64,000 bases of DNA from Syntrophorhabdaceae bacterium (GCA_963666485.2 CAXXUO010000002.1:416001-480000); one strand, 5' to 3'. Positions 35,590 through 40,242 are shown, counted from the first letter of the stretch. Made by a program: numbers and translations. Notes: a model not told the origin generated them from the letters alone.

Positions 35590-36897
35590 TTAGAAGAAAT
35601 ACCAGGCTGCGAACCTGTAAACGTCGCCGGTGCCTACGCGGTCATCGGTCACGCTAGGTGTAGATGCCAGGTTGTAGCCGGTGACCAGATGGGTCCACTG
35701 GAGCCCGAACCTGATCGCCTGGTTGGCGTCCCACAGCAGGTTGACTGAGTAGGTCTGGTTCATGTTGATGTTGTTGGGGAAAGCCATACGCTGATATTCG
35801 CTGGCGTTGTATTTCAGGTAGCCGTAAGCAAGGTTTGCCCAGAGCTTATCGGTGAACCAGAAGGACAACTGGGTGAAGAGGCCCCAGGCGGTCGGTGCCG
35901 CGGCGTCTCCATTCTCCATTCTCCAGTAGGAGCCTACGCTCGGGGTCGCTACCGGTGTCGGGACGTTGTTCCAGTTGTTGCCTGCGAAGTTCTGGCCGTA
36001 GAAGAAGTTACCGTTGAGAAGCATTGCGAACTGCTTGTTGCCCTGTTTTTCAGGGATGATCGGTACGCTGTACCTGAAAGCAAGCATCCAGGCGTTGACG
36101 GTATCATCGTAATACCCACCCGCACTCGATACGCCCGGGGCGGCATAGGTGGGAAGTCCGGCCACAGTCTGACCCGTGATCTTCTTTTCCTTGCCAAAGT
36201 AACCGCCAAAACCAAACTTCAGGTTGTTCGGGCCGATCTTGCCGCAGCGGTCGGTCCAGTACGCGAGCTCGGCCATGAAGCCCGGCCAGTTGCTCCTGGC
36301 ATAATCATCGGCCTGACGCGTAGGATTGGCACCTGACCACTCTGTGGCAGACTGGATACCGATCATGGCGTTAAACTCTTTCGTGAAGAAATACCTGAAG
36401 GCCATCTGAGGCATCCTGAGGCCTTTGAGGTAGGTCGACTCATCGTTGAAGCCGATCTCTGCGATATAGTAGGGCATACCCCACTGCTGCCAGTTCTGGC
36501 CCATCATCAATTCCGCTGAATCCCAGTTCAACGACATGAATGCATGCCTTAACTGGAAGCCGCCGTAGGAGTTTCCGGTCGATACGCCGCGGAAGTCACC
36601 TTCGACAAATGCGCTTGTCTTTGCTCCCCAGAGATCCGGGCCCTTGATGAGGAAATTAAGGCGGGTCTCACCAGCGGTCTGGAAGGTATTGCTGTAATCG
36701 TCAGCAAGCCAGCTGGTTCCTGAGGACGGTCTGCTGGCATAGTACATGTCAGCATTTGCATTCTGGGTGGTATAGCCCAGATCGTACTTCACAAAGCCGC
36801 CAAATGTTACATCATATCTGCTTGATACGCTGCCCGCATTGCTCAATGCCGGGATGACAAGGAACACAGCAAGCAAAACCAATACTAACTTCTTCAT
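35590..36897 (-). CDS. Outer-membrane porin (DcaP-like beta-barrel)
   Basis: Signal peptide MKKLVLVLLA, GGFVKYD, ETRLNF, FVEGDF, LRHAF, GQNW; C-terminal aromatic WYFF. Confidence 0.82.
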   Translation of the reverse strand: MKKLVLVLLAVFLVIPALSNAGSVSSRYDVTFGGFVKYDLGYTTQNANADMYYASRPSSGTSWLADDYSNTFQTAGETRLNFLIKGPDLWGAKTSAFVEGDFRGVSTGNSYGGFQLRHAFMSLNWDSAELMMGQNWQQWGMPYYIAEIGFNDESTYLKGLRMPQMAFRYFFTKEFNAMIGIQSATEWSGANPTRQADDYARSNWPGFMAELAYWTDRCGKIGPNNLKFGFGGYFGKEKKITGQTVAGLPTYAAPGVSSAGGYYDDTVNAWMLAFRYSVPIIPEKQGNKQFAMLLNGNFFYGQNFAGNNWNNVPTPVATPSVGSYWRMENGDAAAPTAWGLFTQLSFWFTDKLWANLAYGYLKYNASEYQRMAFPNNINMNQTYSVNLLWDANQAIRFGLQWTHLVTGYNLASTPSVTDDRVGTGDVYRFAAWYFF

Positions 36898-37174
36898 TCT
36901 TGCCTCCTTAGTAATATTTTTTGCATCTTTGAACATACTTGTCGTCACTCCACCTCCCTCTATTAACTTTTTTTAATTTTATATCAACCGGCCGGAAAAC
37001 TGTCAAGGGAAAAATTAATTATTTTTAATAAAAAATCCCCTTTATTTCTTCCGGCCCGACGCTCCAAGGACGACCTTCCCTTATCTTCCCGGGCCCACGC
37101 GTCACGAGATAACTGGTCATAGCGTCCCTATGTCTAATATAACACGTCCCGGCGGCGGTTTAATCGTCCGTTTG

Positions 37175-37183: not shown

Positions 37184-37286
37184 TAATTGGATCAACTTTA
37201 AGGAGGGACTATGGAGCCGCAAGGACCCGGGCTGCAGAATCTTTGTCAGAAGCATGGAAGGACCATTAACAGGTGAAATACTGGCA

Positions 37287-37694
37287 ATGATAGCTTTCAG
37301 GGTCCTCGATCATGATGCCGATATCCGGATAGAGGTCTCCGGGACATCCCGGCAGGAACTCTTTGAAAATGCCGCGAAGGGTATGTTTTCGCTTCTGACA
37401 GACCCCTCTTTCGTCCAGCCCGTGATCGAGAAGGATATCATCGTCAAAGGCAACGGCGAACTGCTCGTCAATTTCCTCAATGAACTTCTTTATGTCTGGG
37501 ACGTCGAGCGGTTCATACCGGCCGAGGTCTCCGTGGATTTCACACCGGATGGAGCACATGCCGTTTTGAAAGGGGAAAACTTCGACGAGCAAAGGCATGC
37601 CATTCAGCTGGAGATGAAAGCTGTGACGTACCACAATTTTATGATGACCGAACAAAATGACCTCTACCGGGCAACCTTCGTTATCGATGTGTGA
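37287..37694 (+). CDS. Archease (RtcB activator)
   Basis: [33 protein letters not shown]-terminal IDV; directly upstream of rtcB. Confidence 0.93.
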
Positions 37695-37716
37695 TCCCGG
37701 TGATCATGGTGCGATT

Positions 37717-39165
37717 ATGAGCGAGATCGAAAAGCTTGAAAAGATTGACGACAACCGCTTTCTGATACGTAAGAGCGGGGCAATGCGCGTCGACGGGGTA
37801 ATTTATCTCGATGAAGGACTCCTTCAGGGCCTTGGCAACGACGAGAGCTTAAAGCAGGTGGAAAACGTCGCTACGCTTCCGGGCATTGTGAGGGCCTCGC
37901 TTGCCATGCCCGATATTCACTGGGGATACGGTTTTCCCATAGGGGGGGTCGCCGCCTTCGATAAGGACACCGGTATCATATCGCCCGGCGGCGTCGGCTA
38001 CGATATCAATTGAGGTGTGCGCCTTTTGCGCTCCGTGTTGAGCGTACAGGACGTCCGAAACAAGGTCCAGGATATCGTGGAAGGCTTTTTCCGCAACATT
38101 CCGAGCGGACTCGGGTCACGGCGGAAGGATGTCCGGCTTACATACAGCGAATTAAAAGCGGTGCTGAAAAAAGGTGCGCGCTGGGCGGTCTCCAACGGGT
38201 TCGGCACATCGTCGGATATCGAGCACATCGAGGACGGAGGATGTCTCGAAGATGCTGATCCTGACATGGTCTCCGATAAAGCGTACGACCGGGGCAAGGA
38301 CCAGCTGGGAACGGTCGGAAGCGGCAACCATTTTGTGGAGGTCGGGTACGTTGCGGAGATATTCGATCCCGGGATCGCATCGGACTTCGGGCTTTTTCCG
38401 GGGCAGGCCACGGTAATGATACACACGGGCTCGCGGGGGCTCGGATACCAGGTTTGCGATGAATCGATCCGGCACATGCTTTCTGCAGCCGCAAAATACG
38501 GGATCGACCTTGTTGACAGGCAATTATGCTGTGCGCCGCTTGGATCGCCGGAAGGCAGCCGTTATTTCTCGGCAATGGCGGCAGCCGCCAATTATGCCTT
38601 TGCGAATCGCCAGATGATAACGCATTGGGTACGCGAGACGTTCGAACAGGTATTTCGGGCGAGCGAGGCATCGCTCGGGCTGTCCCTTGTCTACGATGTG
38701 TGCCACAACATTGCCAAAAAAGAGAAGCACGTCGTTGAAGGTAAAGAAGTCAACCTCTGCGTGCATCGAAAGGGGGCCACACGCGCCTTCCCTCCCGGCC
38801 ACAGGCTTGTGCCGGAAAAGTACCGCAAAGCCGGGCAGCCCGTCCTCGTCCCCGGGGATATGGGGCGCGCCTCGTACGTTCTTGCCGGGACGCACCAGGC
38901 AATGGAGGAAACGTTCGGCAGCACGTGTCACGGGGCAGGAAGGGTAATGAGCAGGAACCAGGCGTTAAAGGCAGCTCGTGGACGATCGATCGCCGGAGAG
39001 ATGGAAAAGCGCGGCGTATACGTGCGGTCAGCCAGCAAAGCGACCCTCGCCGAGGAGATGCCAGAGGCATACAAGGATGTTTCGAAGGTGGTTGAGGTCG
39101 TTCATCGTGCCGGCATATCAAAACTCGTGGCGAAGATAGTGCCTCTTGGGGCCATAAAGGGCTAA
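37717..39165 (+). CDS. rtcB: RtcB RNA ligase, predicted selenoprotein (TGA 38011-38013 at the catalytic Cys)
   Basis: ORFs 37657-38013 and 38017-39165 are in one frame. [14 protein letters not shown]...[16 protein letters not shown], then [40 protein letters not shown] are all intact. Confidence 0.93.
38022..38050 (+). promoter_or_regulatory. Candidate bacterial SECIS element of rtcB
   Basis: Stem TGCGCTC/GAGCGTA with loop CGTGTT starting 21 nt after the UGA; lower CCT/AGG pairing. Confidence 0.65.
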
Positions 39166-39170
39166 AAGAT

Positions 39171-39206
39171 GGTTCAAGGTAAAAGGTTCAAGGTTCAAGG
39201 TAAAAG
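39171..39206 (+). repeat. Heptamer array (GGTTCAA/GGTAAAA)n
   Basis: Directly after the rtcB stop; inverted partners (TTGAAC(A/T))n at about 39259-39286 and 39666-39693. Confidence 0.8.
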
Positions 39207-39230: not shown

Positions 39231-39332
39231 AATCAGGTTCCTGAAGTCCGCTTTTTCTTTGAACTTTGAACATTGAACATTGAACTCTTTTCTATAATAA
39301 TGGTAATAAATTGAGCATGGCTGAAGAAAACG
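39231..39332 (+). repeat. 102-bp direct repeat of the cobO promoter and first codons (other copy 39638-39739)
   Basis: Identical except one base; contains TATAAT and ATG GCT GAA GAA AAC G. Confidence 0.95.
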
Positions 39333-39488: not shown

Positions 39489-39723
39489 CAAATTTTTCCG
39501 GAAGGTTTGACAATGAATGAGTGGCAGTTGATATCCCTCCGCGATTGGAGTGTCTTGCACTGAAACAATCTTAACCGGAAGACTGTGACTCTTCATTTAT
39601 GAGTCTGTAGTTGTCAACGCTTTACCTGACCAGTGCAAATCAGGTTTCTGAAGTCCGCTTTTTCTTTGAACTTTGAACATTGAACATTGAACTCTTTTCT
39701 ATAATAATGGTAATAAATTGAGC

Positions 39724-40242
39724 ATGGCTGAAGAAAACGGGCTTGTTATCGTCTTCACGGGGTCCGGGAAGGGAAAGACGAGTGCGGCGCTCGGGATTGC
39801 GCTGCGGGCGTCGGGACGCGGACTGAGGACGGTCATCGTTCAATTTCTGAAAAGTGCCGAAATGTCCGGGGAACAGCTCATCGGGAATCCGTTAATAGAG
39901 GTCCACGCCTTTGGGACGGGGTTCTTTAAACGGGGCGACGATCCGCAACCCCACATTGATACTGCAGCCCAAGGATGGAAGGTTGCCGAAGATATGATAC
40001 TGTCCGGTGGCCCGGACATTCTTGTCCTCGATGAGGTATCACATGCCGTCAATTTCGGTTTTTTACCTCTGGAGGCTGTATCGGGAGCAATACGGAGGAA
40101 AAAACCCGGTCTTCACGTCATCTTAACCGGAAGGGACATGCCGCAGGACCTTGTTGAAATTGCCGGCATCGCCACCGAAATGAAGGAAATTCGCCACATT
40201 TACACGTCAGGCCAACCGGCGGTAAAAGGGATAGACTATTAG
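39724..40242 (+). CDS. cobO: Cob(I)yrinic acid a,c-diamide adenosyltransferase (CobO/BtuR)
   Basis: FTGSGKGKTSAALG.ALRA.G.G, VQFLK, LDE, LTGR, KGIDY. Confidence 0.93.
   Translation: MAEENGLVIVFTGSGKGKTSAALGIALRASGRGLRTVIVQFLKSAEMSGEQLIGNPLIEVHAFGTGFFKRGDDPQPHIDTAAQGWKVAEDMILSGGPDILVLDEVSHAVNFGFLPLEAVSGAIRRKKPGLHVILTGRDMPQDLVEIAGIATEMKEIRHIYTSGQPAVKGIDY

Follow-up and report, generated by a model that had tools for sequence, protein, structure and literature searches.

A candidate selenocysteine form of the RNA ligase RtcB, predicted from an archease-rtcB gene pair of a Syntrophorhabdaceae bacterium and from related genomes and metagenomes

Introduction

In the RNA ligase RtcB of Pyrococcus horikoshii, Cys98 bridges both manganese ions of the active site, M1 together with His234 and His329, and M2 together with Asp95 and His203. 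The alanine mutant at this position abolishes all ligation steps, and in one crystal structure the residue was seen in oxidised form, as sulfonic acid (PMC9745838). Human RTCB requires protection by PYROXD1 (PMC12263435). The bridging cysteine is a known weak point of RtcB. An engineered P. horikoshii RtcB carrying selenocysteine (Sec) at this position (U98), made in E. coli, cleaved itself spontaneously (PMC4150793), and Sec at position 98 is therefore not automatically benign.

Recoding of UGA as Sec is known from the E. coli formate dehydrogenase genes, which use SelB and an in-frame bacterial SECIS element (bSECIS). The criteria published for such elements are a loop of 3–9 nt, a stem of 4–16 bp, a G in the first two loop positions, a distance of 16–37 nt from the UGA, and a minimum free energy at or below -7.5 kcal/mol (PMC13188914). 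According to the same 2026 review, binding of atoms or chemical groups, mostly of metals, is predicted for roughly a fifth of selenoprotein families; the statement of a first-pass annotation of the present locus, that most characterised selenoproteins are oxidoreductases, agrees with it. That annotation had proposed a Sec-containing RtcB, and the computational follow-up is reported here.

Results

Gene pair and reading frame

The window analysed in this study is the whole 64,000-nt stretch of a Syntrophorhabdaceae genome (GCA_963666485.2, CAXXUO010000002.1:416001-480000), and coordinates without a contig name are counted from its first letter. The features of the locus are as follows.

37254..37694, + strand, archease gene (Pfam PF01951, 122.3 bits against a cut-off of 25, residues 15-146; alternative start ATG 37287)
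37717..39165, + strand, rtcB coding sequence of 482 codons with one UGA read through (Pfam PF01139; alignment to PDB 1uc2_A)
38011..38013, + strand, UGA, candidate Sec codon at residue 99 (U99), placed by alignment to Cys98 of P. horikoshii RtcB
38027..38046, + strand, SECIS-type hairpin UGCGCUC-CGUGUU-GAGCGUA (7-bp stem 38027-38033/38040-38046, 6-nt loop 38034-38039)

The first-pass annotation had described two rtcB ORFs as one frame broken only by the TGA at 38011-38013, with archease upstream, and both points were borne out. The ORFs 37657-38013 and 38017-39165 lie in one frame, the codons around the TGA being GGC TAC GAT ATC AAT TGA GGT GTG CGC, and translation of 37717-39165 with TGA as U yields 482 residues in which U99 is the sole recoded position. 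The start at 37717 was inferred from where the homologue alignment begins, with ATG 37657 as an in-frame alternative. The RtcB profile PF01139 is matched at 587.8 bits (cut-off 27) over positions 1-426 of 426, and this locus is the only RtcB match in the genome, with no second copy. An intein-containing RtcB (NCBIfam NF038162) was considered and rejected: with 741.3 bits the protein falls short of the 1150-bit cut-off, and the intein section of that profile is passed over in the match.

The archease gene ends in an ordinary TGA stop codon, leaving a gap of 22 nt to the rtcB start. Archease was found upstream in all 22 Sec-type loci having at least 500 nt of upstream sequence, with a distance between the archease and rtcB matches of 12–457 nt in those Sec-type loci with a position printed. 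The pair is surrounded by unrelated genes (cobO, pyrF, an ORF without a Pfam hit, and genes for a PAS sensor, EamA and MatE transporters and a SpoU methylase), no rtcA-like neighbour was seen among them, and archease-rtcB is a stand-alone pair.

Several other features of the surroundings were recorded. The 452-aa ORF at 35590-36948 on the minus strand, divergent from archease-rtcB, has no Pfam match at E <= 1e-5. Directly after the rtcB stop, at 39171-39206, lies a GGTTCAA heptamer repeat that recurs across the genome, with 86 matches at up to 2 mismatches vs 1 for a reversed control, an array of ~300 bp at C4:299440-299742 being among the 86; at the copy after rtcB the contig depth jumps ~30- to 280-fold, depending on the metagenome run. 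Further on, a 93-nt direct repeat (39231-39323 and 39638-39730, 99% identical) surrounds a segment of ~400 bp that holds two tandem 33-nt units and inverted repeats of 26–28 nt. The second copy of the 93-nt repeat enters the start of cobO, and the leader of cobO thus seems to have undergone an insertion or a duplication.

Residue at the UGA and the metal site

The best match among solved structures is P. horikoshii RtcB (PDB 1uc2_A, E 5e-179), which aligns over its whole length and on which U99 falls on Cys98. The residues Asp95, Asn202, His203, His234, His329 and His404 of 1uc2_A are all matched by identical residues, and their equivalents are invariant in 66 of the 66 aligned relatives, in line with the first-pass view that the other catalytic motifs of RtcB are intact. 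Counting the ligands Asp95, Cys98, His203, His234 and His329 together with the nucleophile His404, five of six are identical, and the one remaining, position 98, is the UGA, which would complete the set only when read as Sec or Cys. The role that annotation had assigned to the D-x-x-C cysteine (Cys98), as metal-bridging and sensitive to oxidation, agrees with what PMC9745838 reports.

Conservation of the TGA across relatives

The TGA recurs at this codon in related genomes alongside cysteine homologues. In 148 related genome loci that were checked by position, the codon was TGA in 44 and TGC or TGT in 104. An RtcB match was present in 39 of 41 related genomes (this one included), and 30 loci fetched from these 41 genomes comprised 20 with TGA and 10 with TGC/TGT; in the genus itself, 19 genomes have an RtcB match and 15 of these carry TGA, again counting this genome. 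These genomes are kin, so that the counts, and the Mann-Whitney p given below for the hairpin, overstate independence.

In an even sample of 401 genomes of the phylum, 326 had an RtcB match at E <= 1e-60. Among the 150 matches listed (185 others being unlisted), 48, spread over 13 families, contained exactly one TGA. For 20 of these TGA rows and 20 rows with no stop, picked by hand to spread over families, the fetched sequence placed the TGA at this very codon in 20/20 of the former, and Cys in 20/20 of the latter. Named species genomes gave 78 loci covering the codon, 74 with Cys and 4 with TGA, the labels of the latter being deltaproteobacterial or Syntrophaceae in three cases and Acidobacteriota in one. 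In metagenomes, at least 120 stretches match the degenerate pattern PGG[VI]G[YF]DIN-TGA-G; in 119 of 120 such stretches the sequence continues for 48 nt downstream, and 114 of the 119 are distinct.

In a protein tree built from 66 full-length rows (37 Sec and 29 Cys; the four partial rows L019, L027, L029 and L030 were left out), at least 11 changes between Sec and Cys are required, nine of them forced by well-supported branches, and Cys forms are nested inside Sec clades. In eight Sec/Cys neighbour pairs, no protein positions stood out as switching together with Sec/Cys, and the columns that changed often were ordinary variable positions.

The TGA itself was checked against assembled contigs of two studies that cover the stretch. 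Two contigs, both of the likely source sample, match it without a difference and carry the TGA. A 9,933-nt contig of the second study differs at 110 bases, and the 40 of 109 differences that were listed, running in positional order from 37238 to 38305, include none at 38011-38013. Public gene callers truncate the gene here, as had been foreseen. The 120 best database relatives comprise 103 full-length Cys forms and 17 fragments of 362–379 aa that start after the TGA, with no full-length Sec form among them; the database protein P0011, which is 96% identical to this RtcB and was called on a contig of the same 9,933-nt length, begins just after the TGA. The nearest named database proteins are labelled Syntrophorhabdaceae, phylum Thermodesulfobacteriota.

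Between pairs of TGA-bearing rtcB genes, dN/dS is 0.03–0.13 before the TGA and 0.05–0.20 after it. Purifying selection persists downstream of the TGA, about as strong as upstream, and the relaxed downstream selection that the first-pass annotation had named as evidence against its proposal was not seen. No further stops were present in the TGA-bearing rtcB genes examined, the two extra X in one locus (L058) being N letters.

The short SECIS-type hairpin

A hairpin after the UGA, with the stem and the loop CGUGUU given in the feature list, had been noted in the first-pass annotation, and it is both present at that place and conserved in relatives. It begins 13 nt after the UGA, and the distance from the UGA to the loop is 20 nt. 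Its 27-nt window folds at -9.4 kcal/mol, so that the loop, the 7-bp stem, the spacing and the energy all lie within the criteria of PMC13188914. By reading of the folds, the same is true of 42 of the 44 genome Sec sequences, with L052 (-7.3 kcal/mol) and L057 (a weak hairpin at -4.8 kcal/mol) missing the energy limit. No Rfam match was found at E <= 10, and the fold of this single sequence is not significant (z = -1.29, with 23 of 200 shuffles folding as well); the significance of the hairpin comes only from the comparison with relatives.

A hairpin is found at the same place in all 40 genome Sec sequences compared, at a mean of -10.3 kcal/mol, vs a mean of -4.95 kcal/mol at the same site in 30 Cys sequences (Mann-Whitney p = 9e-9, the sequences being kin and not independent). 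Elsewhere in these rtcB genes, 242 of 5,852 27-nt windows were equally stable. The Cys sequences that still have the hairpin (L061, L068, L075, L076 and partly L015) are all nested in Sec clades.

Constraint on the nucleotide sequence points in the same direction. The entropy of third codon positions in Sec forms reaches its gene-wide minimum at codons 104-110 (0.73 bits vs a mean of 1.46 bits), and no minimum was found at these codons in Cys forms. When each sequence was recoded synonymously 500 times, the native hairpin beat 95% of recodings in 31 of 44 Sec sequences (median p = 0.018), with 13 of the 44 not at p <= 0.05, vs four of 30 Cys sequences (median 0.29), two of these four being nested Cys forms. 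The hairpin of the rtcB described here had p = 0.018 in this test. Stems vary between sequences yet stay complementary (GCGCUC/GAGCGC, GCGCUCC/GGAGCGC, GCGUUCC/GGAACGC, GAAGACC/GGUCUUC and GAGGACC/GGUCUUC), and the peptide encoded by the hairpin varies with the stem (RSVLS, RSGLE, KTGLV).

In a fixed register, covariation was weak in the 40 genome sequences, with 72.9% of cells pairing and 50 of 500 shuffles reaching that value. With 147 distinct sequences in two registers, none of 500 shuffles came up to the covariation score or to the share of paired cells, and a slid register scored about the same. The mixed pair counts and the ambiguous slid control arise because at least three hairpin registers coexist. 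A covariance model (R1, with its alignment A2) was set aside, since it scored Cys forms highly too, having captured mostly coding conservation. By the folds and the recoding, the short hairpin is a conserved element that recurs in TGA forms and decays in most Cys forms.

A second, longer hairpin type

In the 27-nt window of the short type, 19 of the 119 metagenome TGA sequences have no stable hairpin. Eighteen of these 19, together with two similar sequences, make up 20 metagenome sequences that fold into a much longer hairpin, composed of stems of 5 bp and 11 bp and a 9-nt A-rich loop, the 75-nt stretch folding at -26 to -38 kcal/mol (loci L161, L171, L172, L175, L182, L183, L188, L190, L208, L211, L221, L229, L230, L240, L247, L248, L254, L263, L271 and L272). 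The structure was derived from one of the same 20 sequences, across which pairing holds in 84.7% of cells, with changes on both sides in 8 of the 16 pairs. None of 500 shuffles reached any of five measures, and slid controls pair at 57% or less. The loop is without the G required by the published bacterial SECIS model, and the contigs carry no taxonomy. These approximately 20 metagenome sequences have a different, longer predicted hairpin with compensatory changes, which is new here.

Selenium machinery and genetic code

The genome was searched for selA, selB, selC and selD, the presence of which the first-pass annotation had set as a check, and counterparts of all four were found. SelA has two matches (534 and 476 bits), and two matches to SelB winged-helix domains are present. 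SelD, at 372 bits, is itself of Sec type: its gene too has an in-frame TGA (motif GGG-U-ASK), after which comes a hairpin with the loop CGGGU. There is one tRNA-Sec, with anticodon tca. An alternative code, with TGA as a sense codon, was rejected: TGA ends archease, EamA and SpoU, i.e. three of ten neighbouring genes, and the code is therefore not reassigned.

A second selA-selB pair lies outside the window, in the first ~60 kb of contig C3 (selA at C3:23114-24217, selB near C3:19439). The selA of C3 shares only 45% identity with the other copy, and the region has 64–68% G+C vs 55% for the genome; either it is an island gained by horizontal transfer, or the assembly contains a chimeric join. 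Only one tRNA-Sec was found.

SelA is present in 371 of the 401 sampled phylum genomes, and its co-occurrence with a TGA-bearing rtcB therefore says little. The genome G394 (90% complete), whose rtcB is of the TGA type, had no SelA match at E <= 1e-40, which may reflect its incompleteness. Another genome without a SelA match (G312, 93% complete) carries L076, a Cys-type rtcB with a perfect former hairpin, and this fits a recent loss of the Sec trait.

Discussion

A Sec residue as the probable reading of UGA-99

The archease-rtcB pair very likely encodes a functional RNA 3'-phosphate/5'-OH ligase with Sec in place of the metal-bridging Cys, as judged from sequence comparison, and UGA-99 very probably encodes that Sec. 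The candidate Sec RtcB put forward in the first-pass annotation is supported in this sense, and each of the computable checks proposed there came out in its favour.

A rival account, which we consider improbable, is that UGA-99 is read through without selenium. Near-cognate or suppressor decoding would then place Cys, Trp or some other residue there, and the hairpin would act only as a generic stimulator. Hairpins after stop codons can stimulate read-through in general, and the identity of the residue at UGA-99 is beyond sequence computation. This hairpin, however, has the spacing and the loop G of a bSECIS, and its loop is similar to the one in the selD element of this genome; the genome moreover has the full Sec machinery and otherwise uses TGA as a normal stop, and the site aligns only with Cys, as in a classic Sec/Cys pair.

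The hairpin and the synonymous constraint would also be left unexplained if the gene were split, with an N-terminal piece of 98 residues and a separately initiated C-terminal piece of ~380 residues assembling into one enzyme. GTG 38017 does open an ORF of 382 aa, and public gene callers report fragments of 362–379 aa, but most TGA-bearing relatives have GTC, GTA or GTT in place of this GTG, which leaves no conserved start at 38017. The two pieces would in addition be without the bridging ligand, whose alanine mutant is dead at every step (PMC9745838), and we regard this arrangement as very unlikely.

A pseudogene or assembly error, i.e. a recent inactivating TGA or a sequencing mistake, is what standard annotation of a broken gene would imply and has next to no likelihood given the TGA at this codon in 44 genome loci of many families and at least 120 metagenome stretches, the dN/dS of 0.05–0.20 after it, the two identical source-sample contigs and the second-study contig with no listed difference at 38011-38013, and P0011, a gene call on a contig of the same length as that of the second study, which starts just after the TGA.

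Proposed mechanism and possible role of selenium

With UGA-99 read as Sec, the hairpin 13 nt past it would recruit SelB carrying Sec-tRNA(Sec) during translation, and the codon would be decoded as Sec rather than ending the chain at residue 98. The full-length enzyme would then guanylylate His405 (His404 in P. horikoshii), with the GMP passed to the RNA 3'-phosphate before attack by the 5'-OH, and archease would act as activator. A selenolate, instead of a thiolate, would be common to the metal sites M1 and M2. What we infer here is the insertion of Sec and whatever effect it may have on catalysis.

Why Sec would be used is a matter for suggestion. Selenium oxides are generally easier to reduce back, and the reason that we prefer is that the Cys of RtcB is prone to irreversible over-oxidation, from which a selenium ligand might be recovered more easily. 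Alternatively, Sec may bring about a shift in metal preference.

A broader proposal, possible but on balance somewhat doubtful, is that these genes form a family of natural selenoenzymes, which would be the first known to act in RNA repair or splicing, in which a selenolate bridges binuclear non-redox metals, Sec serves recovery from oxidative or metal-induced ligand damage in anaerobes, and at least two unrelated SECIS architectures act at the same codon. Under this proposal, the advantage for which selenium was selected would be that anaerobes can restore the ligase once its bridging ligand has been damaged, and the same problem of ligand damage would be met in metazoa by a dedicated protector, PYROXD1.

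A natural selenium RtcB would provide a ready comparison of ligand chemistry with oxidation tolerance and metal choice, and would add a nucleic-acid enzyme to a mostly redox selenoproteome. There is also a consequence for annotation, as current annotation turns hundreds of rtcB genes of anaerobe genomes and metagenomes into truncated fragments (here, 17 among the 120 best database relatives), something that a family model permitting U at the bridging site of RtcB would mend.

Comparison with known systems

No report of a natural Sec-RtcB was found among the papers listed in full-text searches on RtcB, older names of its family or archease together with selenocysteine or selenoproteins, a scope outside which lie PMC9879109, PMC12013261 and Deng et al. 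2026, which could name RtcB. Neither 'RtcB' nor 'ligase' occurs in the BSepDB paper (111 families; main text and one supplement) or in the deep-Sep paper, and the 2026 review on selenoproteins of prokaryotes has no 'RtcB', 'ligase' or PF01139, its table of families included (PMC13188914). NCBIfam release 20.0 has only generic or intein RtcB models. The enzyme and the recoding mechanism are each known, and we could not find their combination described.

Cys-type RtcB proteins, such as P. horikoshii PH1602 (PDB 1UC2, 4DWQ and 7LFQ) and T. thermophilus TTHA1785 (PDB 2EPG), have, position 98 apart, the same metal ligands, the same GMP-accepting His and the same Asn202 as the protein predicted here, and the operon order of archease and rtcB is also the same (PMC3973293). 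The difference lies at the position of the bridging Cys98, which is here a UGA followed by an in-frame hairpin.

With the E. coli formate dehydrogenase genes the locus shares the arrangement of a UGA followed by a hairpin that fits the bSECIS criteria. The loop AGGUCU of many relatives is presumably the same as that of fdhF. The host protein, on the other hand, is a nucleic-acid ligase rather than an oxidoreductase, the hairpin has a sequence peculiar to this family, and a second rtcB lineage has a longer stem and a loop without the G.

Sec in place of Cys as a first-shell metal ligand is found in [NiFeSe] hydrogenase. The same substitution occurs in the formate dehydrogenase FdhA (Mo/W-Sec; PMC13188914), and it is proposed for the RtcB of this study. 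Both of these are redox metal centres, whereas the RtcB site is of the binuclear Mn(II) type and activates GTP and RNA phosphates with no redox step.

The nearest precedent for the residue itself is the engineered U98 RtcB of P. horikoshii, made with the UTu system, in which Sec occupies the identical position of a close homologue. That protein is man-made, UAG-encoded, EF-Tu-delivered and self-cleaving (PMC4150793), whereas the genes described here are natural and under purifying selection.
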